The notes under the pieces: model-generated
Database searches by the model: none
What the model saw: the letters and a program-made list of their open reading frames with translations, nothing else
Told to the model about the DNA's origin: nothing
Source of the DNA: Eledone cirrhosa
Lineage: Eukaryota
NCBI GenBank assembly: GCA_964016885.1
Contig: OZ024740.1
Location: 180,172,001-180,236,000, forward strand
DNA: 64,000 bases
Direction of reading: 5' to 3'
Shown here: one piece after another, positions 2,291 through 44,899 of the stretch
How the letters are laid out: each line of letters opens with the position of its first letter
Numbering within the stretch: position 1 is the first letter of the stretch
Made by a program: the position numbers and the translations under genes

Positions 2291-2713
2291 CACTACATTC
2301 CATTTCTAAGAACCCTCTTTTCCCGTATTTGTTATTTTATGCATATTTGTATATATTTTAAATTTATACACTGTACTGAAATAAATGATAACATAGAAAG
2401 AGATTATCCTTAGTTAGCTCAGTATATGGTACTACCCTTCACAGACATGACTCATCCATACAGAATGACTGGTAAGTCCAGGAGAGATTGTCCTTCATCA
2501 ACATCACCAATGGCTTGTGCACACATAAACATTTTACCATGAGGAATTTTGTCCCTTCATATGCACTCAAACGTACTGAGCAGTCATTGGATTTGCAAAG
2601 CTTCCAACTTTCTGATATGATTTTGCATATAGTAGAGTGACATTCGTATATTAAGGGTCAAGAAGATTCGGACTGGTAGTCACCTGAATACATAAGTGGC
2701 CAGTTTCGTTCTC

Positions 2714-3443: not shown

Positions 3444-5163
3444 TAGAAATTGGAATAAATGCTCTGAAATAGCGATATATATGTGAATATAGACATAGAA
3501 TATTCGAAAATATTCTGTATGTTTATAATAAACATTTTGAAGACCTAATCGCTATAGAATAGAATACGTCACGTATTACAATTAGATTCTCGATAAAAGC
3601 AAGGGAAGTAATCTACGCGTTTCATTCTCGTTAGAAATCATCAGGACTACATATCCAGTGCTTTTATCGAGAATGACACAGCTAGAGACTTATAGAATAC
3701 TTAGCTGTGTACAGGAACTGGTTTGAAAGAGCGGTTGCCGGTCCGGCAGAAATTAGAAATTGGAATAAATGCTCTGAAATAGCGATATATATGTGAATAT
3801 AGACATAGAATATTCGAAAATATTCTGTATGTTTATAATAAACATTTTGAAGACCTAATCGCTATAGAATAGAATACGTCACGTATTACAATTAGATTCT
3901 CGATAAAAGCAAGGGAAGTAATCTACGCGTTTCATTCTCGTTAGAAATCATCAGGACTACATATCCAGTGCTTTTATCGAGAATGACACAGCTAGAGACT
4001 TATAGAATACTTAGCTGTGTACAGGAACTGGTTTGAAAGAGCGGTTGCCGGTCCGGCAGAAATTAGAAATTGGAATAAATGCTCTGAAATAGCGATATAT
4101 ATGTGAATATACACATAGAATATTCGAAAATATTCTGTATGTTTATAATAAACATTTTGAAGACCTAATCGCTATAGAATAGAATACGTCACGTATTACA
4201 ATTAGATTCTCGATAAAAGCAAGGGAAGTAATCTACGCGTTTCATTCTCGTTAGAAATCATCAGGACTACATATCCAGTGCTTTTATCGAGAATGACACA
4301 GCTAGAGACTTATAGAATACTTAGCTGTGTACAGGAACTGGTTTGAAAGAGCGGTTGCCGGTCCGGCAGAAATTAGAAATTGGAATAAATGCTCTGAAAT
4401 AGCGATATATATGTGAATATAGACATAGAATATTCGAAAATATTCTGTATGTTTATAATAAACATTTTGAAGACCTAATCGCTATAGAATAGAATACGTC
4501 ACGTATTACAATTAGATTCTCGATAAAAGCAAGGGAAGTAATCTACGCGTTTCATTCTCGTTAGAAATCATCAGGACTACATATCCAGTGCTTTTATCGA
4601 GAATGACACAGCTAGAGACTTATAGAATACTTAGCTGTGTACAGGAACTGGTTTGAAAGAGCGGTTGCCGGTCCGGCAGAAATTAGAAATTGGAATAAAT
4701 GCTCTGAAATAGCGATATATATGTGAATATAGACATAGAATATTCGAAAATATTCTGTATGTTTATAATAAACATTTTGAAGACCTAATCGCTATAGAAT
4801 AGAATACGTCACGTATTACAATTAGATTCTCGATAAAAGCAAGGGAAGTAATCTACGCGTTTCATTCTCGTTAGAAATCATCAGGACTACATATCCAGTG
4901 CTTTTATCGAGAATGACACAGCTAGAGACTTATAGAATACTTAGCTGTGTACAGGAACTGGTTTGAAAGAGCGGTTGCCGGTCCGGCAGAAATTAGAAAT
5001 TGGAATAAATGCTCTGAAATAGCGATATATATGTGAATATAGACATAGAATATTCGAAAATATTCTGTATGTTTATAATAAACATTTTGAAGACCTAATC
5101 GCTATAGAATAGAATACGTCACGTATTACAATTAGATTCTCGATAAAAGCAAGGGAAGTAATC
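3444..5163 (-). repeat. 310-bp hammerhead-containing tandem array, left arm (about 5.5 units, 5 complete HHRs)
   Basis: Exact 310-bp period (AAGGGAAGTA at 3601, 3911, 4221, 4531, 4841, 5151). The ribozyme sense strand is minus. Confidence 0.97.
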
Positions 5164-8100
5164 TATAGCGATTAGGTCTTCAAAATGTTTATTATAAACA
5201 TACAGAATATTTTCGAATATTCTATGTCTATATTCACATATATATCGCTATTTCAGAGCATTTATTCCAATTTCTAATTTCTGCCGGACCGGCAACCGCT
5301 CTTTCAAACCAGTTCCTGTACACAGCTAAGTATTCTATAAGTCTCTAGCTGTGTCATTCTCGATAAAAGCACTGGATATGTAGTCCTGATGATTTCTAAC
5401 GAGAATGAAACGCGTAGATTACTTCCCTTGCTTTTATCGAGAATCTAATTGTAATACGTGACGTATTCTATTCTATAGCGATTAGGTCTTCAAAATGTTT
5501 ATTATAAACATACAGAATATTTTCGAATATTCTATGTCTATATTCACATATATATCGCTATTTCAGAGCATTTATTCCAATTTCTAATTTCTGCCAGACC
5601 GGCAACCGCTCTTTCAAACCAGTTCCTGTACACAGCTAAGTATTCTATAAGTCTCTAGCTGTGTCATTCTCGATAAAAGCACTGGATATGTAGTCCTGAT
5701 GATTTCTAACGAGAATGAAACGCGTAGATTACTTCCCTTGCTTTTATCGAGAATCTAATTGTAATACGTGACGTATTCTATTCTATAGCGATTAGGTCTT
5801 CAAAATGTTTATTATAAACATACAGAATATTTTCGAATATTCTATGTCTATATTCACATATATATCGCTATTTCAGAGCATTTATTCCAATTTCTAATTT
5901 CTGCCGGACCGGCAACCGCTCTTTCAAACCAGTTCCTGTACACAGCTAAGTATTCTATAAGTCTCTAGCTGTGTCATTCTCGATAAAAGCACTGGATATG
6001 TAGTCCTGATGATTTCTAACGAGAATGAAACGCGTAGATTACTTCCCTTGCTTTTATCGAGAATCTAATTGTAATACGTGACGTATTCTATTCTATAGCG
6101 ATTAGGTCTTCAAAATGTTTATTATAAACATACAGAATATTTTCGAATATTCTATGTCTATATTCACATATATATCGCTATTTCAGAGCATTTATTCCAA
6201 TTTCTAATTTCTGCCGGACCGGCAACCGCTCTTTCAAACCAGTTCCTGTACACAGCTAAGTATTCTATAAGTCTCTAGCTGTGTCATTCTCGATAAAAGC
6301 ACTGGATATGTAGTCCTGATGATTTCTAACGAGAATGAAACGCGTAGATTACTTCCCTTGCTTTTATCGAGAATCTAATTGTAATACGTGACGTATTCTA
6401 TTCTATAGCGATTAGGTCTTCAAAATGTTTATTATAAACATACAGAATATTTTCGAATATTCTATGTCTATATTCACATATATATCGCTATTTCAGAGCA
6501 TTTATTCCAATTTCTAATTTCTGCCGGACCGGCAACCGCTCTTTCAAACCAGTTCCTGTACACAGCTAAGTATTCTATAAGTCTCTAGCTGTGTCATTCT
6601 CGATAAAAGCACTGGATATGTAGTCCTGATGATTTCTAACGAGAATGAAACGCGTAGATTACTTCCCTTGCTTTTATCGAGAATCTAATTGTAATACGTG
6701 ACGTATTCTATTCTATAGCGATTAGGTCTTCAAAATGTTTATTATAAACATACAGAATATTTTCGAATATTCTATGTCTATATTCACATATATATCGCTA
6801 TTTCAGAGCATTTATTCCAATTTCTAATTTCTGCCGGACCGGCAACCGCTCTTTCAAACCAGTTCCTGTACACAGCTAAGTATTCTATAAGTCTCTAGCT
6901 GTGTCATTCTCGATAAAAGCACTGGATATGTAGTCCTGATGATTTCTAACGAGAATGAAACGCGTAGATTACTTCCCTTGCTTTTATCGAGAATCTAATT
7001 GTAATACGTGACGTATTCTATTCTATAGCGATTAGGTCTTCAAAATGTTTATTATAAACATACAGAATATTTTCGAATATTCTATGTCTATATTCACATA
7101 TATATCGCTATTTCAGAGCATTTATTCCAATTTCTAATTTCTGCCGGACCGGCAACCGCTCTTTCAAACCAGTTCCTGTACACAGCTAAGTATTCTATAA
7201 GTCTCTAGCTGTGTCATTCTCGATAAAAGCACTGGATATGTAGTCCTGATGATTTCTAACGAGAATGAAACGCGTAGATTACTTCCCTTGCTTTTATCGA
7301 GAATCTAATTGTAATACGTGACGTATTCTATTCTATAGCGATTAGGTCTTCAAAATGTTTATTATAAACATACAGAATATTTTCGAATATTCTATGTCTA
7401 TATTCACATATATATCGCTATTTCAGAGCATTTATTCCAATTTCTAATTTCTGCCGGACCGGCAACCGCTCTTTCAAACCAGTTCCTGTACACAGCTAAG
7501 TATTCTATAAGTCTCTAGCTGTGTCATTCTCGATAAAAGCACTGGATATGTAGTCCTGATGATTTCTAACGAGAATGAAACGCGTAGATTACTTCCCTTG
7601 CTTTTATCGAGAATCTAATTGTAATACGTGACGTATTCTATTCTATAGCGATTAGGTCTTCAAAATGTTTATTATAAACATACAGAATATTTTCGAATAT
7701 TCTATGTCTATATTCACATATATATCGCTATTTCAGAGCATTTATTCCAATTTCTAATTTCTGCCGGACCGGCAACCGCTCTTTCAAACCAGTTCCTGTA
7801 CACAGCTAAGTATTCTATAAGTCTCTAGCTGTGTCATTCTCGATAAAAGCACTGGATATGTAGTCCTGATGATTTCTAACGAGAATGAAACGCGTAGATT
7901 ACTTCCCTTGCTTTTATCGAGAATCTAATTGTAATACGTGACGTATTCTATTCTATAGCGATTAGGTCTTCAAAATGTTTATTATAAACATACAGAATAT
8001 TTTCGAATATTCTATGTCTATATTCACATATATATCGCTATTTCAGAGCATTTATTCCAATTTCTAATTTCTGCCGGACCGGCAACCGCTCTTTCAAACC

Positions 8101-11100
8101 AGTTCCTGTACACAGCTAAGTATTCTATAAGTCTCTAGCTGTGTCATTCTCGATAAAAGCACTGGATATGTAGTCCTGATGATTTCTAACGAGAATGAAA
8201 CGCGTAGATTACTTCCCTTGCTTTTATCGAGAATCTAATTGTAATACGTGACGTATTCTATTCTATAGCGATTAGGTCTTCAAAATGTTTATTATAAACA
8301 TACAGAATATTTTCGAATATTCTATGTCTATATTCACATATATATCTCTATTTCAGAGCATTTATTCCAATTTCTAATTTCTGCCGGACCTGCAACCGCT
8401 CTTTCAAACCAGTTCCTGTACACAGCTAAGTATTCTATAAGTCTCTAGCTGTGTCATTCTCGATAAAAGCACTGGATATGTAGTCCTGATGATTTCTAAC
8501 GAGAATGAAACGCGTAGATTACTTCCCTTGCTTTTATCGAGAATCTAATTGTAATACGTGACGTATTCTATTCTATAGCGATTAGGTCTTCAAAATGTTT
8601 ATTATAAACATACAGAATATTTTCGAATATTCTATGTCTATATTCACATATATATCGCTATTTCAGAGCATTTATTCCAATTTCTAATTTCTGCCGGACC
8701 GACAACCGCTCTTTCAAACCAGTTCCTGTACACAGCTAAGTATTCTATAAGTCTCTAGCTGTGTCATTCTCGATAAAAGCACTGGATATGTAGTCCTGAT
8801 GATTTCTAACGAGAATGAAACGCGTAGATTACTTCCCTTGCTTTTATCGAGAATCTAATTGTAATACGTGACGTATTCTATTCTATAGCGATTAGGTCTT
8901 CAAAATGTTTATTATAAACATACAGAATATTTTCGAATATTCTATGTCTATATTCACATATATATCGCTATTTCAGAGCATTTATTCCAATTTCTAATTT
9001 CTGCCGGACCGGCAACCGCTCTTTCAAACCAGTTCCTGTACACAGCTAAGTATTCTATAAGTCTCTAGCTGTGTCATTCTCGATAAAAGCACTGGATATG
9101 TAGTCCTGATGATTTCTAACGAGAATGAAACGCGTAGATTACTTCCCTTGCTTTTATCGAGAATCTAATTGTAATACGTGACGTATTCTATTCTATAGCG
9201 ATTAGGTCTTCAAAATGTTTATTATAAACATACAGAATATTTTCGAATATTCTATGTCTATATTCACATATATATCGCTATTTCAGAGCATTTATTCCAA
9301 TTTCTAATTTCTGCCGGACCGGCAACCGCTCTTTCAAACCAGTTCCTGTACACAGCTAAGTATTCTATAAGTCTCTAGCTGTGTCATTCTCGATAAAAGC
9401 ACTGGATATGTAGTCCTGATGATTTCTAACGAGAATGAAACGCGTAGATTACTTCCCTTGCTTTTATCGAGAATCTAATTGTAATACGTGACGTATTCTA
9501 TTCTATAGCGATTAGGTCTTCAAAATGTTTATTATAAACATACAGAATATTTTCGAATATTCTATGTCTATATTCACATATATATCGCTATTTCAGAGCA
9601 TTTATTCCAATTTCTAATTTCTGCCGGACCGGCAACTGCTCTTTCAAACCAGTTCCTGTACACAGCTAAGTATTCTATAAGTCTCTAGCTGTGTCATTCT
9701 CGATAAAAGCACTGGATATGTAGTCCTGATGATTTCTAACGAGAATGAAACGCGTAGATTACTTCCCTTGCTTTTATCGAGAATCTAATTGTAATACGTG
9801 ACGTATTCTATTCTATAGCGATTAGGTCTTCAAAATGTTTATTATAAACATACAGAATATTTTCGAATATTCTATGTCTATATTCACATATATATCGCTA
9901 TTTCAGAGCATTTATTCCAATTTCTAATTTCTGCCGGACCGGCAACCGCTCTTTCAAACCAGTTCCTGTACACAGCTAAGTATTCTATAAGTCTCTAGCT
10001 GTGTCATTCTCGATAAAAGCACTGGATATGTAGTCCTGATGATTTCTAACGAGAATGAAACGCGTAGATTACTTCCCTTGCTTTTATCGAGAATCTAATT
10101 GTAATACGTGACGTATTCTATTCTATAGCGATTAGGTCTTCAAAATGTTTATTATAAACATACAGAATATTTTCGAATATTCTATGTCTATATTCACATA
10201 TATATCGCTATTTCAGAGCATTTATTCCAATTTCTAATTTCTGCCGGACCGGCAACCGCTCTTTCAAACCAGTTCCTGTACACAGCTAAGTATTCTATAA
10301 GTCTCTAGCTGTGTCATTCTCGATAAAAGCACTGGATATGTAGTCCTGATGATTTCTAACGAGAATGAAACGCGTAGATTACTTCCCTTGCTTTTATCGA
10401 GAATCTAATTGTAATACGTGACGTATTCTATTCTATAGCGATTAGGTCTTCAAAATGTTTATTATAAACATACAGAATATTTTCGAATATTCTATGTCTA
10501 TATTCACATATATATCGCTATTTCAGAGCATTTATTCCAATTTCTAATTTCTGCCGGACCGGCAACCGCTCTTTCAAACCAGTTCCTGTACACAGCTAAG
10601 TATTCTATAAGTCTCTAGCTGTGTCATTCTCGATAAAAGCACTGGATATGTAGTCCTGATGATTTCTAACGAGAATGAAACGCGTAGATTACTTCCCTTG
10701 CTTTTATCGAGAATCTAATTGTAATACGTGACGTATTCTATTCTATAGCGATTAGGTCTTCAAAATGTTTATTATAAACATACAGAATATTTTCGAATAT
10801 TCTATGTCTATATTCACATATATATCGCTATTTCAGAGCATTTATTCCAATTTCTAATTTCTGCCGGACCGGCAACCGCTCTTTCAAACCAGTTCCTGTA
10901 CACAGCTAAGTATTCTATAAGTCTCTAGCTGTGTCATTCTCGATAAAAGCACTGGATATGTAGTCCTGATGATTTCTAACGAGAATGAAACGCGTAGATT
11001 ACTTCCCTTGCTTTTATCGAGAATCTAATTGTAATACGTGACGTATTCTATTCTATAGCGATTAGGTCTTCAAAATGTTTATTATAAACATACAGAATAT

Positions 11101-11743
11101 TTTCGAATATTCTATGTCTATATTCACAATAATAATCGCTATTTCAGAGCATTTATTCCAATTTCTAATTTCTGCCGGACCGGCAACCGCTCTTTCAAAC
11201 CAGTTCCTGTACACAGCTAAGTATTCTATAAGTCTCTAGCTGTGTCATTCTCGATAAAAGCACTGGATATGTAGTCCTGATGATTTCTAACGAGAATGAA
11301 ACGCGTAGATTACTTCCCTTGCTTTTATCGAGAATCTAATTGTAATACGTGACGTATTCTATTCTATAGCGATTAGGTCTTCAAAATGTTTATTATAAAC
11401 ATACAGAATATTTTCGAATATTCTATGTCTATATTCACATATATATCGCTATTTCAGAGCATTTATTCCAATTTCTAATTTCTGCCGGACCGGCAACCGC
11501 TCTTTCAAACCAGTTCCTGTAGACAGCTAAGTATTCTATAAGTCTCTAGCTGTGTCATTCTCGATAAAAGCACTGGATATGTAGTCCTGATGATTTCTAA
11601 CGAGAATGAAACGCGTAGATTACTTCCCTTGCTTTTATCGAGAATCTAATTGTAATACGTGACGTATTCTATTCTATAGCGATTCGGTCTTCAAAATGTT
11701 TATTATAAACATACAGAATATTTTCGAATATTCTATGTCTATA

Positions 11744-11747
<4 letters not shown>
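5162..11747 (+). repeat. 310-bp hammerhead-containing tandem array, right arm (about 21.2 units, 21 complete HHRs); retrozyme-like
   Basis: GTAGTCCTGATGA recurs every 310 bp from 5380 to 11581, with one 1-bp gain near 11130 and only a few scattered substitutions. The arm runs into (TA)n at about 11748. Confidence 0.97.
5380..5422 (+). ncRNA. Minimal type I hammerhead ribozyme (representative copy of 26); predicted cleavage after GUA at 5416|5417
   Basis: Stem I GTAGTC/GATTAC, core CTGATGA, stem II TTCT-AACG-AGAA closed by a U.U mismatch, GAAA, palindromic stem III CGCG, then UA. The motif is enclosed by a perfect 16-bp inverted repeat (5356-5371 / 5429-5444). Confidence 0.92.
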
Positions 11748-11800
<53 letters not shown>

Positions 11801-15378: not shown

Positions 15379-18331
15379 ATGTGTTAAGAGTAGGATGTTT
15401 GAATGCACGTGGCCTGGGCTCAACTTGGAAGTAAGCAAAGCTTCTAAATGACCTCAGGTCACGTGGTATAAATATAATGGTTATCTGTGAGACTCGGATC
15501 AGCGTCGTGCGGCAGCTGGCCCCTACCTTCGATGACTTTGAGGTGCATGCATCTCTCTGTCAACCTGGAAGTGGGGGTGGGGTTGTCGTACTGCTGGAAA
15601 AAAACACCTGGATCTCGCCGTACAGGTTGTTCACTCGGACCCGGAGGGTCGTTTGTTGGTGCTAGACGTTGGCAGTAGTGAAATGCGGCCTTGAGACTGG
15701 TCGCCGTCTACTCCCCTTTCGGAGCTGAACGGCCCGACTTCTTCCAGCGTTTGGAGACTTTTCTGGGAACGTCGCGTTGCCTGCTTCTAGCGGAGAATTG
15801 GAATGACATCCTAGATGCACGTTGGGACTATGCAGGAGCATGTCCTAATAGAGGGGGTCGTAACAGCCTCAAGGGGTTACTCGACCGTTTTAACTTGGTC
15901 GATAGATATCGACTAGATTTTCCAACTGTGCCAACCTGGACTTGGACGAACCATAGTGTTCAATCTAGATCGTACTTAGATATATTCTTAGTTAGAAGTA
16001 AGGATAGGGACATATTAAGCTGTCCAGAAATGCTCACGGTTGGCTATACGGATCACAAATTAGTGACCTGCGTAGTCAATCTCGAGAAAAAACATAAACA
16101 CGGTCCCGCTTACTGGAAACTTAATTTGTCTTTACCGGCAAAAGAGACTTACAGAAACCGGATTAGCCGATTAGTTAAGGAGAGGTTGACGGGTGCAATC
16201 GTCAACAACCGATGGTGGGCATCTCTCAAAAGAGAGATTAGAACAGAATCAATACGTTATAGCAAGATGTTAGCTGCCGATAGGAATAGAAACGAGAAAG
16301 AATTAACAGGTAAATTAGAAGAGGCAATCAAGAGCGAAGATGTGGCCAGAGTGCTGGCATCGAGAACGGCCTTGAACCAGTTTTTCGATGCAAAGCACGA
16401 AGGCTGCGTCATTCGAAGTAAAATACGTGCTCTAGGTAATGAGGGGGCCAAAGCCGTTGGCTGGGCTTTCCTGACAGAAGCTAAGAGTGGAAATCGATCC
16501 ACCATCCGGTCGTTGCAAGACGAGGATGGACGGGTGATCCGGGAGCCTAAGCAGATGTGCGAGGCCTTTCAAAGGCACTTTGCCCGATTATTCGGGGGAG
16601 ACGAGGGTCCGGGCGGGGACGTGGATTTCGGTCCATACCTCGACGGCCTGCCACGTCTCTCGAGCGAAGAGGCAGAGTCCTGCGAGCGACCAATCTCGGC
16701 TGATGAGATCGGCGATGCGCTGAGCCAATGCAGCAGACGCAAATCCCCAGGTCTCGATGGTATACCTTACGAACTTTATTTAGCAATGCCGGTCTTCTTC
16801 TCCGAACTCCTCGAAGCGGTCTACTGCAATTGACAGCAGAACGGGAGAATTCCTTGTTCTGTAGCCAAGGGCGTAGTCTCCCTGGTGAGGAAGGACGAGA
16901 GCAAGGGGGATAGTATAAATAATTTTCGGCCCATAACCCTGCTAAACACAGAGTTAAAGATTTTGGCCAAGGTGTTAGCAAAGAGGTTGGCGCTTCGTGG
17001 GTGGCCTGGTGGGAGATGCGAAGACATGTGCTATCCCATCCAGGTACATTCACGATAACCTTCACCCCATGCAATACATCATAGAGAGGGTTGGCAACAA
17101 ACCCGGCTTCGGTGGGGCCCTGATCAACTTGGATAAGTCTAAGGCCTTCGATAGGGTCGACCATGGTTACCTGGATGCGGTGCTAGCGGCGGCTGGGTTC
17201 GGTCCTGTTTTCAGAGGCTGGATCACTGCCTTACATAGCAACCACATCTGTTCTAGGATCAAGGTGAACGGCTACCTTTCGAAGCCGTTCGAAATCACAC
17301 GATCCATTCGACAGGGGTGCCCTCTCTCCTCCCTTCTGTACGTATTGACTCTCGAGCCTTTACTGAGGAAGTTGGAGTTGTTGCAGGGTATCCCCCTGGA
17401 ACCAGGATTGAGCAAAGCGGTGTCGTCCTACACCGTGACGTAACAGTAATGGTATCGACCGACTCGTAGGCACGCATTAAGGCTACGGCACCTACAGGTA
17501 TTCCTCACTGGTCAACCGGTGTGGGCTCCGTTCGTGAAACGAGCCTTTCCGAGACTCGTCTCGCTCACCGAGCTGCAGTCCTGGGTCAAGAAAAGATCCG
17601 GAAAACTGGGAGACTGGCACACTGAGTGTGCCCAGGCGCTCAGGGCTCTCTGGCAAGCGGGCCAGACCATCGGTGGAGAATCCACCTCATCATTCTATAG
17701 AGGGCTGGTGGCTAGCAGGGGCGATGACACGCTTGGAGAGTCGCTGGACATGGAAGAGGACGAACTGGCCAGTCTGTTCGGTAGGACTTTCGGCCCGGGA
17801 CCAATGGACAACTTCCAGAAGTCACTAGCCTGGCAGTGCTACCGGGGGGCTCTACCCGTTCGAGAGAGGCTCTTCAGACACGGGCGCCCGGGCAGGGATC
17901 CCTCGAAAAAGATTTGCCCTAGATGCATGCGTCACGAAGAAACCGTTGCGCACGCATTGGTGCAATGTCCGGGAGTGGCTGATCTGTGGGGCTACGCCGA
18001 ACGACTGCTGTCGCGGGTGGCGCAGATTCGATTGACCGCCGAGTCCGTGATGACAATCAAGCCGCCTCCCCTCTTCACAAAGGAAGCAGAGGCGGTTTTT
18101 CTGTGCGTAATAGCCATGTTGAAAGAGGTTGTTTGGTGGACACGATTGAAAGGTCTGAGGTCAGGCAACTTCTTCTCTGGCCATCGTCTGGTCTACTTCT
18201 TCCGATATCACTTCGGAAGAAGGATAACAATGGAGAGAGAGGTGGTTGGCCACAGGCAGTTTTATGAAAGGTGGCTGATAGTGGCGAGAATGGCTCGTGT
18301 AAATGGGCCTTTTCTGTATACCATCCTGTAG
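15375..18331 (+). pseudogene. LINE ORF2 (APE endonuclease plus RT), with stops, frameshifts and an internal deletion near 17480
   Basis: Motifs LNARGL, ICET, SYLD, TDH, WKLN, KSPGLDG, RPITLLN, KAFDRVDH, RQGCPLS and CPRC...HALVQC. Confidence 0.9.
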
Positions 18332-18571
18332 GTAAAGAAGTGAAGGAGAGGGGAGCACCTTCTCCATGTGCTCCCCGGGCAAAGGATTGCACACTTTTTC
18401 GGGGGGGGGGGTGCAACCCCCATCACGTCCCCCCCCCTTTTGGGGTTGTTTTCGATTATTTTCATTTTATACCCTTTTTACTCGATTTTATGTAAACTCC
18501 CCCTTTGTATTTGTCCCTTCTTTTTATGCCTTTATGTAAATAAACAAATATATCTATCTATCTATCTATCT

Positions 18572-19390
18572 CATCGAAGACGATGAGCTCATCAGTATGT
18601 TTGGTAGGACTTTCCGCCCGGAACCTATGGACAACTTCCAGAGGTCCCTGGCCTGGCAGTGCTACCGAGGAGCTCTACCGGTTCGTGACAATATCTACAG
18701 GCACGGACGCCCTGGCAGGGATCCTTCCAATAGGACGTGTCCAAGATGTGCGCAGGACATTGAAACAGTTCTGCACGCAATTGTACACTGCCCGGGTGTA
18801 AGCGACCTGTGGAACTATGCAGAACAACTGCTGTCGCGTATGGGACAAATACAGTTGACTGCCGAGTCCATAGTAAGGATCAAACCGCCAGACTCTTTCA
18901 AAAACGAAAGAGAGGCGGTTTTCCTCTGTACGGTGGCTATGGTGAAAGAAGTTATATGGTGGACGAGGTTGAGAGGACTGAGGACAGATGCCTTTCTCTC
19001 CGGACAACAATTGATTCCCTTCTTTAAGTATCACTTTAGAAGGAGAATCAGGGTGGAGAGAGAGGCACTGCACCCCAGTAAATTTACTGAAAGGTGGGTG
19101 AATGAAGCGAAAATGGCCCGAGTGATTGGGCCTTCTCTGTTTATAAGCCTGTAGGTTGAGGAAGAGAGCAAAAGGAAGAAAGGAGCACTTGCACAACACG
19201 CTCCTCGAGTTGAGGGTTGTTCTATCGACGGGGTATTAAACAACCCATTTGTGGCGCCTCCCCCCTATTGGGGATTTCGATTGTTGAAATTGTTTGTTTT
19301 TATATTTTTTACACGACTGTATGTAAAATCCCCGGCATGTCTTTGTATTGTCCCCTTTCTTGTTGCGCCCTTGTGGATAATAAAGAAATC
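18572..19390 (+). mobile_element. 5'-truncated 3' end of a related L1/Tx1 subfamily, in tandem directly after the first element's tail
   Basis: ORF 18597-19154 is a diverged paralog of 17519-18331. It has a different 3' UTR ending AATAAAGAAATCTATCTATATA. Confidence 0.9.
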
Positions 19391-24329: not shown

Positions 24330-24445
24330 AAATGCAATCTCAGTTTTTCGAATATTAGTAATAACATTTGATTCGTTTGCAAGTATGCAAACAAGCCTCA
24401 AGTTTATAGCCATGTCAGTAGAATGAACTCTTCATTCTTGCTCTT
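24330..24445 (-). repeat. Dispersed copy of the structured repeat found at 44095-44640
   Basis: TTTCGAATATTAGTAATAAC...GTTTGCAAGTATGCAAACAAGCCTC...AGCCATGTCAGTAGAATGA matches 44450-44545 and abuts (TA)n. Confidence 0.75.
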
Positions 24446-24787
24446 TGAAAGTAGATAGTATTTTATGAAGTAAACATCGGCTGAGTAGCCTCATTTGCAT
24501 AGCGAACGAGTTACGACTTACCATCACGAATATTATAAATAAAATTAGAATTTTATTTCTCGCCCAGGCAAAGCTGATACATAAATGTAAGAATGGACAC
24601 GTACACACAAATATATATATACATACATATAAATATATAAACACACACACACACATACATGCACACATACATATCAAAGCCAGTGTTGAACAAACAAGTG
24701 GCGATCGGTCACTAGCATGGCTCAGCTTAAAATGGGGCCGTTTCTTTACAAACGAATCTAACATTATTAATGTTCAATATTACAGTT

Positions 24788-25184: not shown

Positions 25185-26809
25185 ATATAAATATATATAT
25201 GAATATATAAATATATAAATGGAAAAGAATGAAACGAAATTTCATTTCTCACTCTTATTACTGCTGATACCTAAATATAAGTATGTATACGTACATATAT
25301 ATACTTGTACAGGCGTACAGTGTATATATATATATACATACATGCACACACATATATATATATATATGTAAGTATGGTTTTACCGAACATTTATTATAAT
25401 TTTCGGTTTGTTTGTAAACAAACAGCCCGAATTACGCCGTACATTGCTCGGCGACCATCGTCACCCTTTTGTTCAACATTGACACAGGGACGATGTACTA
25501 GTTTCAATCTTATTAGCTATCGTCAGCATTGTATATACTTTCAAAAGTTCAATCATCTGACAGAAGGTATACTTATATTTAAGTATCAGCCGTACTAAGA
25601 GTGAGAAATGAAATTTCGTTTCATTCTTTTCCATCTATCGTTTTCGGTACGCCCGGCCGACCAACTCACTCGATATGCAAATTAGGCTGCTCAGCCGTTA
25701 ATATGCATAAGACAAGTATATACTTTCAAACATTCAACCATCTGACAGAAAGGTATACGATGCTGACGATAGCTAATAAGCTTAAAACTAGACCATATAT
25801 GGAATAATTCTATTCGGCTAACTTAAATGCAGGTAATCGGATTTAATGTTGATTTGTTTATGAAGTAAGGAATTCCACCTCCCTCTCGAAAGAGGCATTA
25901 CTATGGTCTTCGAGATAATATTCTCAGAATAGCTAAAACGTATTCCTGGTAGATCGCTGAGCTGAAATGTACGGAGTGTAAACTAAATACACAAACTGGC
26001 CTGGAAACATACACGTATGTCATGCTATATACTTATCTAATTTGGTTCGTTTTGATTCAAACGATCAATTAATACAAGAGCATCCCTCGTAGCCATTCTA
26101 TTCGGATTTATATCACATTTGTATGTAACAACAATAACATTCCTCGTCTAATGCATGTGTTTATGTATTAAGGAATAGTGTTGAATTTGAAAGGGTTTAA
26201 GTGTGGCCCTTCTATGTTGCGTCAATTGCGATTGCATACAGATGTTGTCGCTAGATGTAATATAATTTAATTACATAATACTTAGTCTGTTTACAACAAG
26301 ATGAATGGAAGCCTTCACGCTAAAAAGGCAATGAAACTGCTTCAGCGTATTTGGAGAAACGTTTTATTAGCTTGTAGTGTATGTACATATAACTTTGAAT
26401 TTAAGTTATTTTACGTAGTATATCACATAAGCTTTCTACGTCTGTGTTGATAGACACTAATATCTACAAAATGGATTATATACTCTTCTGCGGAACCATT
26501 TCATAGATTTGGGTATCGGAGTTTTGTGATGAATGTTGATAAAACTTATCCTTCTCGAAGCTGAATGTCCAACAGTTGAACTTTCCCCTACACACTAACG
26601 TATTTCTCATTCAAGACGCACTGATACGGCTGCATGCAATGATCTATTTTGAGTTGTGTGATCTCCTACTGAAAATTAAGTTGGTGACATGATGTTGATT
26701 ACCGACCTAACGGCTAGATATCTACCAATTTTCAAGGCATATTTGAATACTTGATTATATCTAAAATAACCCTTAATCGAGTTGTTTTTATTTATATAGT
26801 TGGTTCCAT

Positions 26810-28860: not shown

Positions 28861-29648
28861 ATTATTATAAATGTAAGCTATCGCCGTATTTTGACTAAAG
28901 AAATTAAAGAAATTATTTAGCCTGGTAGTGGGGTTAAGAACCCTCGGAGAAATGGAAAAAGATGAGTATTGACGTACATAGGGAGTCGAACCTACATCTT
29001 TGGTTATCCAGACCACTGTGCTACCATTTACACCAACACACCACCCGTCTTTTTCCATTCAAATTAGAAGCTATAATACTTAGCTACTGTAATGTCAAGT
29101 AAGAATATTTTTCGAAACAGCTAGCGGGTTTGAAATTATTATAAATGTAAGCTATCGCCGTATGTTGACTAAAGAAATAAAAAAAATTATTTAGCCTGGT
29201 AGTGGGGTTAAGAACCCTCGGAGAAACGGAAAAATATGAGTATTGACGTACATGGTAGTCGAACCCACATCTTTGGTTATCCAGGCCACTGTGCTACCAT
29301 TTACACCAACACATCACCCGTCTTTTTCCATTCAAATTAGAAGCTATAAACTTAGCGACTGTGATGTCAAGTAAGAATATTTTTCGAAACAGCGAGCGGG
29401 TTTGAAATTATTATAAATGTTAGCTATCGCCGTATGGTGTAAATGTTAGTACAGTGGTCTGGATAACCAAAGATCTGGGTTCCACTCCCATGTACGTCAA
29501 TACTCATCTTTTTCCATTTCTCCGAGGGTTCTTAACCCCACTACCAGGCTAAATAATTTCTTTAATTTCTTTAGTCAAAATACGGTGATAGCTTACATTT
29601 ATAATAATTTGAAACCCGCTCGCTGTTTCGAAAAATATTCTTACTTGA
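28861..29648. repeat. ~274-bp tandem repeat carrying a tRNA-like module; about 2.1 units on the minus strand, then an inverted partial unit
   Basis: Units start at 28861, 29135 and 29407, with the inversion near 29435. Both outer ends abut (TA)n. Confidence 0.9.
28971..29044 (-). ncRNA. tRNA-like sequence (pseudo-tRNA; 7-nt loop CTGGATA) inside the 274-bp unit
   Basis: Minus strand reads TGGTGTG-T-TGGTGTAAATGGTAGCAC-AG-TGGT-CTGGATA-ACCA-AAGATG-TAGGTTCGACTCC-CTATG-TACGTCA. It has A- and B-box-like motifs and cloverleaf order, with a G.U-rich acceptor stem. Confidence 0.7.
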
Positions 29649-30159
<511 letters not shown>

Positions 30160-30625
30160 GTCAGGTCACCAGTTGGTGCTACTAGTAACATGTATCCCAG
30201 TACAACCTGCCTCATGGTCGGGTCGTTGGCGACTAAACTGGCAACCCAACCAATACATCTTGGTGAGGAGGGTGACTTTGGACATCCTGCAGGACTAACA
30301 ACAAAACCTGTCAAAGGGCAAAACAACTCCTGGGAGCTCTTAAGTGCTCTTGGAGTCAATGGTCATCCAAAACCAGCACAGCCCGCCGAAAGGAGCTGCA
30401 GTGCCGGACAAGTCAACTTCTTGCTACTAGTATGCTGGTAAGCTAGTACAACGTATATCCAGACGGACAGAGTGGGTCCGTAGCTTTGGTTAGCGACTAC
30501 CCTAGTGCTTGCAACACGAACAATTAGGGCCAGGGTATAAATGCCAGGTTGGTATCTGGCGCCGGGTAACCCACCACATGGAGGAGAAAGCCCCTTCTTC
30601 AAGACTTGGCTGTCAAATTCTTTCA
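30160..30625 (+). repeat. Dispersed repeat, possibly a LINE 5' UTR; second copy at about 36140-36330
   Basis: GTCACCAGTTG...CCAGTACAACCTG...GGCGACTAAACTGGC...GGTGAGGAGGGTGACTTT is shared by both copies, and both start at (TA)n. Confidence 0.65.
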
Positions 30626-30881
30626 CAGATTAAAGTAAGTGAGTTTGTTACTACTCTAAAACAATAGCATACGGACTTCAAAATGCTTTTAATTAAGCAT
30701 GAAGTGTATTGCAAAATACATTATATATACATTCATATATATATTGCTATTTCAGAGCTCCAATTCTAATTTTTAATTTCTGCCTGACCGGCAACCGCTC
30801 TGTATAATCAGTTCCTGATTATTTACTAGAATTCTATAAGAATATAACATCAGTGATCTCAGTAGACAGGAGGGAGTATTT

Positions 30882-30926
30882 AGCCCTGATAAGCATCAAT
30901 AAATGCGAAACAAGGCCTTGTCGGCT
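30882..30926 (+). ncRNA. Type I hammerhead with C3/A8 mismatch core
   Basis: AGCC-CTGATAA-GCAT-CAATAA-ATGC-GAAA-CAAGGCCTTG-TC-GGCT, with palindromic stem III. Confidence 0.75.
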
Positions 30927-31200
30927 TATCTCCCCTTGTTTGCTGAGATTGAAGTAAGTGAGTTTGTCACTACTCTAAAACAATAGCATACGGTCTTCAA
31001 AATGCTTTTAATTAAGCATAAAGTGTATTGCAAAATACATTATATATACATTCATATATATATTGCTATTTTATAGCTCCAATTCTAATTTTTAATTTCT
31101 GCTTGACCGGCAACCGCTCTGTATAATCAGTTCCTGATTATTTACTAGAATTCTATAAGAATATAACATCAGTGATCTCAGTAGAGAGGAGGGAGTAGTT

Positions 31201-31245
31201 AGCCTTGATAAGCATCAATAAATGCGAAACAAGGCCTTGTCGGCT
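31201..31245 (+). ncRNA. Type I hammerhead, U3-A8 compensated variant
   Basis: AGCC-TTGATAA-GCAT-CAATAA-ATGC-GAAA-CAAGGCCTTG-TC-GGCT. Confidence 0.8.
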
Positions 31246-31406
31246 TATCTCCCCTTGTTTGCTGAGATTAGAGTGAGTGAGTTTGTCACTACTCTAAATC
31301 AATAGCATACGGTCTTCAAAATGCTTTTAATTAAGCATAAAGTGTATTGCAAAATACATTATATATACATTCATATATATATTGCTATTTCAGAGCTCCA
31401 ATTCTA

Positions 31407-31500
<94 letters not shown>

Positions 31501-31504
<4 letters not shown>

Positions 31505-32416: not shown

Positions 32417-32783
32417 GCAGAGCAATTCGTGGTAGCAGGGATGGTCAGTAAGAATGTGTCTGTAAGCAATGGGGGGGTATTTTAGCATGTCAAAAGATAT
32501 TTTTCAGCTTTTGTCTTATACGGAGAAGTGCGTGTGTGTGTGTGTGTATAAGTCTCTTTGTATGTTAATGTACGCGTGTGTATGTGTGTGTGTATATATG
32601 TGTGTGTGTGTGTGTGTGAGTGAGAATGTGTGTGTGGGGGGGGGACCAGTATTTTTTTCCCCTGTTAAAATGGTGTACATTATTAGATTTTTTCAGTAAA
32701 ATTGGTTCTCTTAATAGAACATCAAAAATCTTAATAAAAGGTGTGAAATGATATTCACTATATATATATACACATACATATAT

Positions 32784-32823
<40 letters not shown>

Positions 32824-35557
32824 TTTTTTGTGTTGCACCATAGAGCATGTGTGTTTACGTATGTCATTGTGTTTATATGTGGGTAGAGATGTGTGCTGAT
32901 GTAGGTATGTATGTTGACGTGTGCATGTTTTGGGTTCGTCTTAGGGAGAAGTGTTTAGACGTGGTCCGTATTTGTTAATGAAGTAAGATTCCTTGCTGAT
33001 GCACTGGGTGTGGGTGGCATTTTCTTTAAATTTGTAGAGGGGAAAGATTCTGAAGTTGGGACGATTTGGGGCGGCACAGGTATCAATGTGTTCACTCAGT
33101 GGTATTTTCCTGTATTCGCGTATTTTAATTTGGGATCTATGGACAGTCATGCGTTGGCGGAGGCTGATTTTGGTCTGGCCTATGTATTGTTCTCGACAAC
33201 CTGAGCAAGTTAATACATATATTAGATTTTCCGATGGACATGTGAAATTGTGTTTTACTATAAAACGTTGTCCTTCTTTGAAATATTAATTCCGTACCCT
33301 CTATTAGGTTGATGCAAATGCCACAGTTGGGTCTATCGCATTTTTTTTACTGTGGGTTTCGTTGTTGTGGTTGGCATTACTTTGGCATGTGTTAGGATGT
33401 TTTTCATTGACTTGGATTGTCTTTTGCTCTTTATGATATCGTGTGTTCGTAGGATTTGGTTCATTCTATGGTCCTTTTTCAACACAGGGATGTTCTGGAG
33501 GATGGTGTCAAAGGCCTCATTGTTGAGGGGGTTGTGTGTGGAGATGTATGGAAGAGCTTTTAGTTTCGGTTGATTTACTTTAGGGTGTCTAAGGTCCTGG
33601 GTACTGAGTTTTAGGGCACGTTGGATTCCATTGTCAATTAGTGATGCAGGGTAGTCCCTGCCTATGAGTGTGTCCTTTAGTTCTTGTAGCCGTAAGTAGC
33701 AGATGTTTTTAAATTGTAGGGAATATTAATTTTACGTGTCTAGGGTGGCAAGAGTTGAAAGGGAGATATTGTTTGGAGTCTGTGGGCTTGTAGTATATGT
33801 CTGTTTCTATTTTTTTGTTATGAATATTAATGAGGATGTCGAGGAAGGGGAGTTGTTGATGGCTGTGTTCCATCGTGAAGTTAATATTCGTGTTGAGCCC
33901 ATTTAAAAGGGTGTGAAATTCTTTAAGTGTTTCGATGTTTTCGTGCCAAAGGATGAAGCAGTCATCTAGATATCGCGTCCAGTTCCTTTCAATGTGTAAG
34001 TGGAGGGTGTTTCCAAATTTGTTCAGGACTTTAGTGTAGAGGGTGATTTTCAGGTATCCCATGACTAGGTTGGCATAAGTGGGGGCTGTTTTCGTTCCCA
34101 TAGCGGTCCCAGATTTCTGCCTGTAGGGTTTGTTATTGAAAACGAAATAATTGTTCTCCAAGATAAATTTGAGTCCCTCTATCACGAATTCTTTTTTGAT
34201 GCGTTGTGGGAGTTCATTGTGGAAATTATCCAGTCAGAATTGGATAGCTTCTATTCCTAGGTTGTGGGGGATGTTGGAGTATAGGTTGACTACATCTAAC
34301 GTCACTAGTAGGGTTTGTTCAGAAAGTGGCATATTAGGGAGGTGATTGAGCATATCTAGGTCGTCCCTTATATAGCTTTTGATGTGTTTGAGGAAGGGTT
34401 TGAGAAGGGTATCAATGAAGTTGCTAAGGCGGTGGGTTTCGCAAGCGGGGCCTGCTATTATAGGTCTTAATTTGAGATCATTGGGTGAGGGGACATTGAT
34501 GACTGTCTGTGGCTTCCTTGCATGCCTTACTTATTGATTCGCTTTTATGTACTTTAGGGATACCGTAGAAAAGGCTGGATTTACTTGTGAAGTCAGTGAT
34601 GAGGCTGAATTCCTTGTTAGTGAGTCCTTCTTTGTATTGGTTGATTAGAGTTTTTAGGTTTCTCATAATTTTCTGTTGATTGTAGTGTTCAGCCTTTTCG
34701 TAGTATGTTTCGTTTTCCAAAGTGGAGAGCGCTAAGTTGATATAGAATTCTGTCTCCATTAGGACTACTGTACTCCCTTTATCAGCCTCTTTAATTGTAA
34801 TCTTTCTGTCGGTTTTTAATCTATTTAATTCTTCCCATTCTTTCTTGTTGAGGTTTGGCTTGTGTTTTTGTCTGTGCTAGTGTTGGTAAGGGAAGTTTGT
34901 GATGTTTTCACATAATTCGTCCAGGATTTTATTTCTACCTTTTGGAGGGGTGTAATTGCTTCTGTTTCTGGCTAATGATTCATCCTCATTGTACTGGTCG
35001 AATAGTTGTTCACTAAGTCGTAACTTTCTACAGAAGTCTGTGATGTCTTCCTTCATTTATTAGTAGTTAGGACGTAGTGGGGTTGGTGTGAATTTAAGAC
35101 CTTTGGAGAGTAAGTTGATAAGGTTGGGTGTTGGTTCTGCACTAGTAAGATTGATAATTTTTATTACTATCGATTTTTGCTCCCTGTCGTGTGTTATTTT
35201 GTTTGCCTGTATCTGTGTGCTGTGTCTAAAAATGGTTGGGGTAGAGGGGTTGTCTGCTGATGTTAAGTGGTCTCCTGTGTTTGTTATATTCCTTGTTGTT
35301 GTAAAATGTGGTTCGGGTTGGTGGTTGTAGATTGAATGGGGTGTTCCTGTACTGCGAGTATGGGTGTGTGTTTTTATGTGCCATGTTGTATTGTGGTGTT
35401 ATAAGTGGCCTACGTTGTTGGTTGTATCGTGTGGTGTGGGTTTGTTGTGTATTGTGGAAGCGAGAGTTGAGAAAATGGTAATTACCTTGCTAAAATATCC
35501 CCCATTGCTTACAGACACATTCTTACTGACCATCCCTGCTACCACGAATTACTCTGC

Positions 35558-35596
<39 letters not shown>

Positions 35597-35661
35597 ATTT
35601 ACTAGCCATTTGACACACATCCCTGCTAACCATTATCACAACATCGAACACCTTACTACTA

Positions 35662-35697
<36 letters not shown>

Positions 35698-36066
35698 TTG
35701 TTGTGAAAGTCATTTCTCAATCTTGGCGCAAAACCAATTTTTTATTCACACGACCTCTACCGACCAATCAAAATTGTTTTGACCACAAGAATTTTTACAA
35801 CACCAAAGTAGCGCTGGAGCCACTTTTTTAACATAAAAACAGGTAGAATTCCCAAAACTAATCAGATCAGAGCAAACAACACGGAAACTCTATCTCAAAA
35901 TTATTTTTGAAAAGCATTTAGAAATGCGCAACCGGTAAATACTTAAAAACTTAAAACCACAACTGAATACTAACCCATACAATTACTAATACTCTTTTAT
36001 TCCTAATTAAACCATTTTTCAACTGTGAACAATTTGTCAGCATTTTCTATTCCGTTTACCAATATA
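31501..36066 (-). mobile_element. Neptune-like Penelope element with an inverted duplicate of its 3' terminal region
   Basis: RT 33709-34185 (AMGTKTAPTYAN, WTRYLDD, LPFLD, YYKPTD), a Cys-containing linker, and GIY-YIG at about 32941-33230 (NLIYVLTC...YIGQT...RMTVHR). 35488-36066 is an inverted copy of 31501-32488. Confidence 0.9.
31728..32220. repeat. Tandem repeat of about 121-126 bp (4 copies) in the Neptune terminal region
   Basis: GTGGCTCCAGCGCTAC at 31743, 31867, 31988 and 32114. Only one copy is present in the inverted arm. Confidence 0.9.
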
Positions 36067-40998: not shown

Positions 40999-43869
40999 GT
41001 GTGTGTGTGTGTGTATTTCACTATATTCCAGTAAAGAACAACGAACAAAGACTATTAATTTAGAAAGGTTATTTTATCACTCGCACCTTGATAAATGCAG
41101 TGAATACGCGTTTCTTTATAGAAAAACTCTAACCATTGATGCTGCTGTTTACAAAATGCGAAATACAACCAACGATTTCAAACGTTATCTGTATGTATTT
41201 ATTTTATGTGAAAGTTGAAGCAAATAAGAAAATGTTTCTGTTATCCTTTTTGGACTTCGAAAAGCATTTCTTTTACATGTTTCTCAGCTAATTGCCTGAA
41301 ACTTATAAACTGTAGCCATATCTACAGCATGTATATTTTAAGTAAGGATACAAACACTTTTATAAACCGCCAATTCGCCTATGTTTCAGTGAAAATAATG
41401 GCATTTTCCCCATTCCTTATTATTCTTTTGCGCTTAAATCTTTGCTAATGCCCTGGGAATAGTCACTCTTAATAGCATCTACATATGTTTCCCACAAATA
41501 CATTGTTCACATAATCTATATGTTGTTTCAAAAGCTGCTTCTTATTATGAGACTATTAGTTCAACACTTTGATTGTTGCAGACATTGTACTATCATTAAT
41601 TTCATAATGATATGTGCATGTCCCAAATTATCTTCGTACTAATGATTTAACTTCGATGAATTTGGCCAAAATTTGAATTGAGAACGTAAGTAACAAGACA
41701 CAGTATATCGCAAGAAACCAAGTCCAACATTTTAATGATCCGCTAAACTTGCATATGGTTTTCTAATATCAGGTTTTCCAACATAAACGCAAAAGATGCA
41801 AATTTAGAGGCATTTTATTGTGGATCATGTCATTCTTGTATTTAATCTCTATTTTATTTTGACCACGGTATTTTCTGATTGCTTTAATTCTTCCACATCG
41901 AGAGGTCCTGAAACCAATTTGAATATGCAAATATATGAAAGTTTGAAACATTCTGGCAATTCAGCACCCTTAGCAATAATTACTGGCATGTGTGTCAAGT
42001 TATATATTTCGTAAATTACTTGCGCTTAAATATATCGAAACTCTACCTACATATCATATAGCATTTGGTCAGATGCTCTAAAGAAACTAAGACTTCCGAT
42101 TTTATTCCATCGGTCTACCGTTTTAGGAAATACCATTGAATTCAAAGTAACTTACGCTGTAATTGTTCAATAGACAGTAATAATATTAAAGAAAATGATT
42201 TGGTGTCAGGGGAGGAAAGAAATAGATCATTTACATTTGATATGATGAATTATATCTGAGAAAATAAACTATTGTTGCAAAAATAATATTCATCATGGAA
42301 CGAAGGGGTAATCTTTATTGATTCGCTCATATTTTGTCAGTCACCTTTCTTGTGACCTAGTAATTATTTAAAGTAGATAGAATACAGAAGAAATAAGGAG
42401 ATACTAACCAGAATTAGGTATCTTAAGCGGAGGGATAAATCTTTATTTTCTATTCGTTTCTCAATACTAAACATATTTTAGCTTTAACTTCGGCATCAAT
42501 TTATATGCAGAATGTATATTTTAACATATAATGAATTCTTTTTATGCAAACATTATTCTTCATATTTGCTATGTAAAACAAGAAATGCTGTCTCCTAATT
42601 TCATCTGAATACTAAAACGACTTCTTGGTCCTTCATCGATGTAATGTAGCTTCCAAAGTATCTTTGGCACTGAAATAAAAGGACAAATTTAATTTGATCA
42701 CAGAGTAGAATGATTGAAATATTGCTTTTAGATCGGCTATTCTTAAACGGATATCCGGTACAACAATTTACATATGATTACAAAATCATATTATAAACGT
42801 AAATTAAATTGTTTAGAACTGCAAGTGAAGTCATTCTTTTCTTCTTTTTAAATATATATATATGTATAAGTTTATCCCGGTTTCAATCGGGGGTAACCAC
42901 AGTAAGTAAGGTATTCAATACATAGCAGGAATAGAACTGTTTCATTCGGGACAAATCATCAGGAAGCCGACTGTCCAAGTATTATGGTGGTATTTATACC
43001 TTTTCCGGTGGTAGGAGAGTGTGGTTATTGGGATGGGTGGAGGTCATTGGTTGATGGATTTAAAGAAAAGGGAATTCTTCAAAAGCTATTTTTAGAGAAA
43101 CAAAAGCTATATTTAGAGTCATAATGGGGGCGGGACACTCCTGATTGTAAGGTTCATTTAAGCTAACAATGGCCATTCATTGATGGGTCTGCCGAAATGG
43201 TCAGGTGTCTACAATCACACACAGGTCCCGCAATATACATGGTGACACTTGTCCGTACGAATATCCCAAGAATATTCTACAAGGCCATTGACCAGAGCGT
43301 TTCCCCAACACATGGATACCATGGATCTTCAAGGGTACACGTTCAATTTCTCTTTTTCAACAACAGCGAATCTTGAAAGCGTGATAGTTAGAATGGTGCA
43401 TACACATTATTTTCAGCCACTGATATTTAAACACACATATACATTTACATATACATAAATTTCCCTATTTGTTTTCGTTTGATGACAAACAAAAAAAAAT
43501 CGGGAAATTTTCCTCCCACTGTAGCCCCGACTCTGCACCCAACAACCATCTCCGGACTGCAAGTGAACATGATAATCCCAACCATCAGACGAACAACGAC
43601 CAACCAAACCACGCCATATACCTTCTACAAACTGGCACCAATGAGCAACCAGACACCCGAGACTCCGGAAGTATATGTATGTGTAGATGTGTGTGTGTGT
43701 TTAAATCTCAGTGTCTGAAAATAATGTGTATGCAACATTCTAAGGCCTAACGTACGTAACTAACGCGCAAACCCCCACACACAAACATGCTCATACATAA
43801 AATGTGGCATCGTCGTCATATTATAAAATGTAGTTTACTATAGTTGACTATAGAAAAATAATTTTAGAT

Positions 43870-44030: not shown

Positions 44031-44093
<63 letters not shown>

Positions 44094-44094
44094 G

Positions 44095-44640
44095 TTGCTC
44101 TACATGGCTCAATACAATAAATGTAATCTGAGTCTTTCGAATATTAATAATAATATTCGATTCGTTTGCAATTATGCAAACAAGCCTAAATTTTAAAGCC
44201 ATGTCAGCATTCTTGCTCTTGTGTATTTTCTAAAATATACACTGACTGATCGGCTTGATTTTCATGTAAGCTGAGAAGTCAGATCTGCATATTACTAGAT
44301 CCCCTGATAAGCTAAATTTGCATATCAGCAGACAGGCCAGTCAGTTTTAGTATACAAGCGATCGATGGCCGGCTTTGCACATTCAGAATATAAAAATAAA
44401 AATAAAAATTTCGCGCTACATGGCTGAATACAATAAAAGTTATCTGAGGTTTTCGAATATTAATAATATTCGATTCGATTCGTTTGCAATTATGCAAACA
44501 AGCCTCATTTTTAAAGCCATGTCAGTAGAATGAGCCCTCATTCTTGCTGTTGTGTTGGCATGTAAACAGAACTGCATACACTAATGGTTCTGTGTATCAC
44601 CCTTCATCAGTACAGTTTACTGTTCACCTGCAAACGGTCA
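44095..44640 (-). repeat. ~316-bp structured tandem repeat (about 1.7 units) with one degenerate hammerhead
   Basis: ACATGGCT at 44102 and 44418, with twin hairpins GTTTGCA/TGCAAAC and TCGAATATT/AATATTCGA. The 3' end abuts (TA)n. Confidence 0.75.
44570..44617 (-). ncRNA. Degenerate type I hammerhead (GAAA mutated to GAAC, weak stem II)
   Basis: Minus strand reads AACTGTA-CTGATGA-AGGGTGATACACA-GAAC-CATTAGTG-TA-TGCAGTT, inside an outer stem GCAGGTGAACAG/CTGTTTACATGC. Confidence 0.6.
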
Positions 44641-44899
44641 GAGCTAGTGAACATATGCTTCATTACATAAACACATGTAACATATGCAATTCTCACAACT
44701 TGGATGAAAATGCATACACTACTTGTGCGGATAGAAATTCGTAATATACTACGGCTTCCGAGGGCTGAAATATATATAGAAATATATAATTCCAATAATA
44801 CGATAACAAAACAAGAGGAATAAAAATGCAGCAGCAAGAGTGCAGCTCTATGTAAAAATAAATAGCTACAATAGAACCAATAAATTATCCTCAAAAGTG

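Follow-up and report, generated by a model that had tools for sequence, protein, structure and literature searches.

The 310-bp and 319-bp tandem families in the window, which is the whole stretch of 64,000 nucleotides of Eledone cirrhosa DNA analyzed here, share a structured core outside their hammerhead ribozyme. Two sites in this core, designated END1 and END2, are the fixed 3' ends of genomic copies. Because the predicted pseudoknotted fold surrounds both ends, the core likely tells a reverse transcriptase (RT) where to start; it is probably the binding and start-positioning element for the RT of Penelope-type elements (PLEs), with two stems docked by the predicted pseudoknot.

Retrozyme arrays and their hammerheads

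The 319-bp array (30627..31408, plus strand) contains 2.5 units, is truncated at its 5' side, and ends at END2, where it joins its target, a (TA)n microsatellite (31407..31504). The 310-bp array spans 3444-11756 and consists of two arms placed head to head: an inverted left arm of 5.6 units (3444..5163, minus strand), whose END2 (unit position 170) lies in (TA)n, and a right arm of 21.3 units with a minimal hammerhead (5159..11756, plus strand), whose END1 (unit position 139) lies in (TA)n. The original prediction that the two units have a scaffold in common agrees with BLAST within the window, which aligned 155 nt at 77% identity (E = 6e-27). In the 3.0-Gb genome, the shared motif matches exactly at 17,555 places, and the reversed control at none. 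A third family (designated C) and several 319-type subfamilies were also recovered from the genome.

The 310-bp and 319-bp families are non-LTR retrozymes, based on their size, tandem layout, ribozyme, and the absence of any ORF of at least 120 aa over either array. The units have no ORF that would encode the RT plus GIY-YIG of an autonomous PLE, and tblastn revealed either neighbouring separate insertions or nothing. Traits of PLE-mobilized sequences are present: partial tandems, 5' truncation, an inverted arm, and an AT-rich target. The arrays are likely to be protein-less, non-autonomous passengers of PLEs.

Units within one array are nearly identical, with a mean of 0-0.88 differences, and the mean between arrays is 2.54. 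Eight distinct units were found among 14 arrays, and in all 4 inverted arrays compared, the two arms have their unit in common. The near-identity in each array fits repeated copying of one circle, or of a multimeric transcript. Contigs on the 319 unit show its presence and a 319-base go-back joint only, and tandem DNA gives the same joint. The 310 unit was found in 6 runs of unspecified type from 4 organisms, with no RNA record listed for it. In a search for homologs outside this genome, the exact core pattern was absent from viral and metagenome contigs.

Two observations concern array structure. A long, diverged 319-type array with higher-order repeats (L202 and L203; G000:C28:5.64-5.66 Mb) suggests a later satellite-like expansion. 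A 467-bp piece (30160-30626), which we take to resemble the 5' end of an RTE-type LINE, lies between (TA)n and the 319-bp array and directly abuts the 5' end of the array; a template switch at this joint is possible.

Each unit of both families has a type I hammerhead motif with its stems. The Rfam HH9 scores are 22.6 and 19.5 bits, under the gathering score of 52. The hammerhead of copy 1 in the 319-bp array (30880..30928, plus strand; predicted cut after 30922) has the core CUGAUAA with a private C3-A8 mismatch, and that of copy 2 (31199..31247, plus strand; predicted cut after 31241) has the U3:A8 core UUGAUAA and a palindromic stem III. Position 30886 is T in all covering contigs, in 2 of 4 runs. 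The C3:G8 and U3:A8 alternatives occur in 82 and 63 distinct contexts (1 mismatch), respectively; the U3:A8 variant was described previously (PMC4209133). Neither of the full 319 cores in the window is intact: besides its hammerhead mismatch, copy 1 has GGAC instead of GGTC in the linker (30673-30676, plus strand), and copy 2 has TATAGC instead of CAGAGC. Since eight of nine Xenopus elements did not cleave in vitro (bioRxiv 10.64898/2026.07.22.740005), self-cleavage should not be assumed for the predicted hammerheads of the 310 and 319 units. Another element of ~130 bp with a minimal hammerhead and without the core forms inverted pairs in (TA)n (L126:685, L130, L140, and window 42849-42945), and its stem II is nearly identical to that of the 310 unit.

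Fold of the core and ends of the copies

The core of ~180 nt has a GC content of 0.30-0.36 and is 73-83% identical among the 310, 319, and C families; the identity of the ribozyme arm is 56-60%. In the predicted 319 fold, a multiloop closed by the ribozyme-bearing stem carries the domain P_A, the domain P_D (a 22-nt loop and hairpin D), and hairpins E and F. In copy 1, the closing stem of P_A (30663..30751, plus strand) is formed by 30663-30669/30745-30751 around the linker and hairpins A, B, and C, and END1 is the AT run immediately 5' of 30745. P_D (30753..30802, plus strand) consists of a CAGAGC/GCTCTG stem around the END2 loop and hairpin D (30781-30793, plus strand), whose loop includes GACC, the 3' strand of the predicted pseudoknot. 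The 5' strand is the linker, GGTC(T) in copy 2 (30992..30996, plus strand; partner GACC at 31105-31108). Hairpin E (TAATCAG/CTGATTA, 30805..30821, plus strand) keeps only 3 bp in the 310 unit. In the MFE structure of the intact 319 unit, exactly GGUC and the UGACC loop are left unpaired, and they are complementary.

The stems quoted in the original prediction were all found in place: hairpin A (5495-5511 and 30683-30700), hairpin B (5515-5532 and 30705-30720), and the enclosing stem, ATAGCGAT/ATCGCTAT in the 310 unit and AATAGCA/TGCTATT in the 319 unit. G-U pairs on the ribozyme strand were likewise confirmed. Blocks described as invariant are identical between the 310 and 319 units but not in family C, which has AATCG for AACCG and CAGCTCC for CAGTTCC. 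The proposed exchange of a UUCG loop for a GNRA loop is weak, as a U-A pair closes the UUCG loop and the loop in family C is GCCA. The register of a hairpin around ATTCTATAAG is not conserved in the 310 unit (helix 9 of the pair counts). The core was unfamiliar in the original prediction, and the whole core has no Rfam match at the gathering score, nor at E up to 5. A second ribozyme on either strand was considered and rejected, with no Rfam match and blocks that, by eye, did not fit hairpin, twister, and HDV-like cores. An intron reading (GTAAGT, YAG) was also rejected, the donor not being conserved across families.

The original prediction did not include the pseudoknot, the fixed 3' ends, or the additional families. 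END1 corresponds to unit positions 139/141, within the AT run that directly precedes the 3' strand of P_A, and its position is blurred by TA microhomology. END2 corresponds to unit positions 165-174 in the P_D loop. The two sites account for 162 of 201 distinct genomic 3' ends (81 each). They are joined to (TA)n in 132 of 162 cases, compared with 7 of 39 other ends. Both ends could be seen in 68 inverted insertions, of which 42 combine END1 with END2, 2 and 2 have two ends alike, and 22 have an unclassed end; one END1 and one END2 are thus present in 42 of 46 classed insertions. Ends of the distant families G1, H, J, and K2 also lie just before the P_A 3' strand or within the P_D loop.

A one-sided tail and an inverted arm are hallmarks of PLEs (Craig et al. 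10.1101/2021.04.23.441226). With a purified anole PLE protein, Frangieh et al. reported that two internal RT starts delimit the tail, that the RT needs RNA 3' of the starts, and that the target is AT-rich (PMC11167929). As the fixed ends lie in the core and the PLE tail is the stretch between RT starts, the core would be the region where copying begins.

Covariation and the predicted pseudoknot

Pair counts within the 310/319/C group were based on 13 sequences hand-picked from 67 distinct segments. In this set, 92.9% of cells pair, and 21 cells are double-changed, a count reached in 0 of 500 shuffles. Double-changed pairs number 5, which is not above the shuffles, being reached by 174 of 500; a separate count likewise did not exceed the shuffles (82 of 500). 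P_D and hairpin D hardly vary, and the pseudoknot and P_D never covary. The covariation seen within the group is thus genuine, though shallow. The covariation originally claimed between the 310 and 319 units holds in that compensatory changes exist, but few of them are independent when two units alone are compared. The proposal that RNA-level selection acts on a structured domain outside the ribozyme is sustained by the folding z score (-6.7 for the intact 319 unit; -3.9 for the 310 unit), by compensatory changes above the shuffles on most measures, and by the G-U pairs.

A pseudoknot of 4-7 bp is predicted between the linker and the hairpin-D loop ~110 nt away. Both strands are invariant in the 310, 319, and C families, and they covary across ~10 distant hammerhead families from the same genome, designated as G1-G3, H, I, J, K1, K2, and L. 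The distant families keep the order of parts and the structural positions of the ends, and a change in the linker is matched by one in the loop. The partners are GGUC/GACC, CAGGC/GCCUG, CGGGC/GCCCG, CGGG/CCCG, ACCGGUU/AACCGGU, GGCC/GGCC, GGCUU/AAGCC, and GGCU/AGCC, the pairing being only 4 bp in several families. Of 40,320 permutations with swapped partners, 7 were not beaten by the cognate partners, a figure that is no clean probability because the segments were chosen by eye and the families are related; with one G family only, the corresponding numbers are 4 and 5 of 720. At most 10% of other stretches of the same size in a unit pair equally well with the loop.

An unaided alignment of 10 sequences from families G, I, and H has 8 of 27 pairs double-changed (0 of 500 shuffles), and 2 of these 8 are in the pseudoknot. 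In the pseudoknot of this alignment, H and I are one column off register, and only 79.6% of cells pair. For K2, a prediction written beforehand passed, with the linker GGCTC and the loop GAGCC in 8 of 12 matches. The prediction for L failed as written, the loop being GAGCC and not TGCC, because the linker of the query copy is a 1-in-30 variant; the commonest linker of family L, GGCTT (10 of 30), pairs with GAGCC. The 310 linker GGTCT and loop GGACC are in the same register as these L segments, at equal spacing from linker to hairpin A, and the two families differ at both central letters of the linker and at their two counterparts in the loop. Family I initially appeared to be a counter-example; its other copies have the loop AAGGCCA against the linker CGGGCC. 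The support from family I is thin: its commonest linker accounts for 2 of 13 matches, and GGAC is seen in 2 of the 4 linkers shown.

Neither MAFFT nor a covariance model brought hairpin D of the distant families into register. The covariance model of the 310/319/C core gave 30-37 bits for K2, barely above TA-repeat noise (up to 29.5), and did not convincingly find G, I, J, or PLE ends. Based on the shared hairpin A, the layout, and the weak K2 match, homology is firm for 310, K2, and L, and looser for G, H, I, and J.

Distant families are also present in the window. An inverted insertion of G2 (25377..25796) has the linker CGGGC in its minus arm and the loop ACGCCCG (~25649-25655) in its plus arm. 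In a decayed inverted insertion of family I (24444..24783), the loop no longer matches the linker. More than one unit of family J (44072..44700, minus strand; boundaries approximate) was found with the linker GGCTT, the loop AAAGCC, and tandem ATGCAAAT-like motifs. In family J (L261-L280; window 44250-44350, minus strand), 3-4 tandem ATGCA(A/G)AT motifs lie within a short repeat after P_D and are a candidate internal enhancer.

Possible function and relation to known elements

Among the roles first suggested for the domain, RT binding or initiation is directly supported by position, with both insertion ends inside the core, and a promoter role competes seriously at the 3' flank only. In the proposed cycle, the array would be transcribed on the ribozyme strand, the hammerheads would cut the transcript to unit-length RNAs, and a host ligase would circularize them, as in other retrozymes (PMC7229834). 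A PLE protein would then bind the docked P_A/P_D core and nick (TA)n, the target seen in the junctions. Two RT molecules would start, one at END1 before the P_A 3' strand and the other at END2 in the P_D loop; the ends are observed, and their role as RT starts is suggested by the anole PLE (PMC11167929). Copying would circle the unit several times and stop at random, which would account for the observed head-to-head arrangement, in which 3' ends are fixed and 5' ends ragged.

A broader reading is offered tentatively: animal retrozymes may have distilled a conserved, pseudoknotted recognition module for the PLE RT, with two internal start sites, a dimeric RT, and a circular RNA. The sister clade of telomerase would then follow a telomerase-like template/pseudoknot logic, and the core would be a portable 180-nt tag for insertion by PLEs. 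The template/pseudoknot core of telomerase RNA places a pseudoknot beside an internal start, and the RT belongs to the PLE/TERT lineage. In contrast to telomerase RNA, the pairing here is a short one between loop and linker, and the element's own genome serves as the RNA; no homology is claimed.

It is unlikely that the core is selected for life as a circular RNA, through a compact fold, nuclease resistance, ligation, host factors, or hammerhead folding, with RT starts set by AU-rich sequence only. In keeping with this idea, circRNAs of retrozymes are abundant and extensively self-paired (PMC7229834). Both ends lie in AT-rich stretches able to anneal to nicked (TA)n, and autonomous PLEs in this genome have two (TA)n-joined ends without the core; however, the ends track structure across families of unlike sequence, and other AT-rich stretches of the unit are seldom used as ends.

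A near-perfect ATGCAAAT, presumably the POU/Oct octamer, is located right after P_D in G, H, I, J, K, and L, in tandem in J, and TTCTATAAG is conserved as sequence and not as a helix. PLE promoters sit in the pLTR (Craig et al. 10.1101/2021.04.23.441226; PMC11167929). These features would suit conserved blocks that are DNA promoter elements of a pLTR with incidental stems, which we consider quite improbable: the 310 and 319 units are abundant though they have no octamer, and a DNA site would not be expected to show changes on both sides of a stem or G-U pairs on one strand. That the shared core reflects recent template switching (mosaicism) with a swapped ribozyme arm, and not selection, is hardly credible: a direct same-strand, in-register G2/319-type chimera is joined at the homologous linker position (L099:1114-1756), the 310 hammerhead resembles that of the G families, and the 310 hairpin A matches K2, but mosaicism accounts for identity and not for compensatory pairs between segments 110-300 nt apart.

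Counting against the preferred reading, 50 GIY-YIG loci (of 10,595 candidates) and ~10 PLE families yielded no autonomous PLE carrying the core, and homology between the core and a pLTR was not seen among the same 50 loci. The genome includes many (TA)n-targeting PLE families, and the inspected ones are without the core. A broken Neptune-type PLE with RT and GIY-YIG in the window (32450-35700, minus strand) was rejected as the partner, its own pLTR being in (CA)n, and a pLTR match at L062 proved to be a separate insertion. Negative-letter pattern searches returned mutated copies and subfamilies only. A looser structural descriptor matched 5 of 7 positives, 0 of 7 autonomous stretches, and 3 of 280 shuffles. 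Seven junctions were examined, 5 of them direct, and no single partner was indicated. At L093, a 319 arm is head to head with the tail of a Neptune-type element, L121, and at L200, a core snippet is at the inversion point of a PLE other than L121; these are single cases pointing to different partners.

Long open PLE frames, measuring 938 and 1096 aa from stop to stop, were observed at L121:3809-6622 (minus strand) and L123:1775-5062, respectively. L121 carries a U3:A8 hammerhead, and two ends ~66 nt apart are joined to (TA)n. A divergent PLE group, ~25-30% identical to Neptune-type proteins and with hammerhead-like pLTRs, is represented by fragments at window 1609-2292 (minus strand), L087, L099, L102, and L239.

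Metazoan non-LTR retrozymes are similarly composed of tandem, AT-rich, non-coding units of 170-400 bp with a type I hammerhead; they coexist with PLEs and have been proposed to be PLE derivatives (PMC7229834; bioRxiv 10.64898/2026.07.22.740005; PMC7761336). A review describes metazoan retrozymes as having no conserved motif that points to the transposition machinery (PMC7761336), whereas the roughly dozen families here have a common core, fixed ends, and a covarying predicted pseudoknot. The preprint among these sources ties retrozymes to pLTRs by sequence, a tie not found here. The pLTR tail of PLEs, such as Poseidon PAc of anole (PMC11167929; Craig et al.), is alike in its two starts downstream of the hammerhead, the tail at one end only, the inverted 5'-truncated arm, the AT-rich target, and the requirement for RNA 3' of the start. 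In PAc, initiation takes place in an AC-rich stem loop within the ORF (PMC11167929), whereas the element here is non-coding and its tail is ~26 nt. The word "pseudoknot" is absent from the main text of PMC11167929. Minimal and U3:A8 hammerheads of PLEs (PMC4209133) are comparable in the palindromic stem III, the minimal form seen in the 310 unit, and the C3:G8/U3:A8 swap; that paper deals with the ribozyme only.

The element class, non-LTR retrozymes, and the tail are already known, and thus only the core is new; no published description of it was found in a search of freely accessible literature. The RNA signal of PLE RTs, the reason for two internal starts, and the machinery that moves retrozymes are open questions in the cited papers. 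Natural compensatory variants of this compact core are ready-made mutants for the existing in vitro PLE assay. The core also offers a structure-based route to retrozymes and their partners, and bears on how relatives of telomerase hold their RNA.

Other features of the window are a tRNA-like match of 31.8 bits, possibly a SINE head (29244-29315, minus strand), Helitron-like Rep/helicase fragments (55416-59026), and LINE RT fragments (16979-19154 and 46210-46704).
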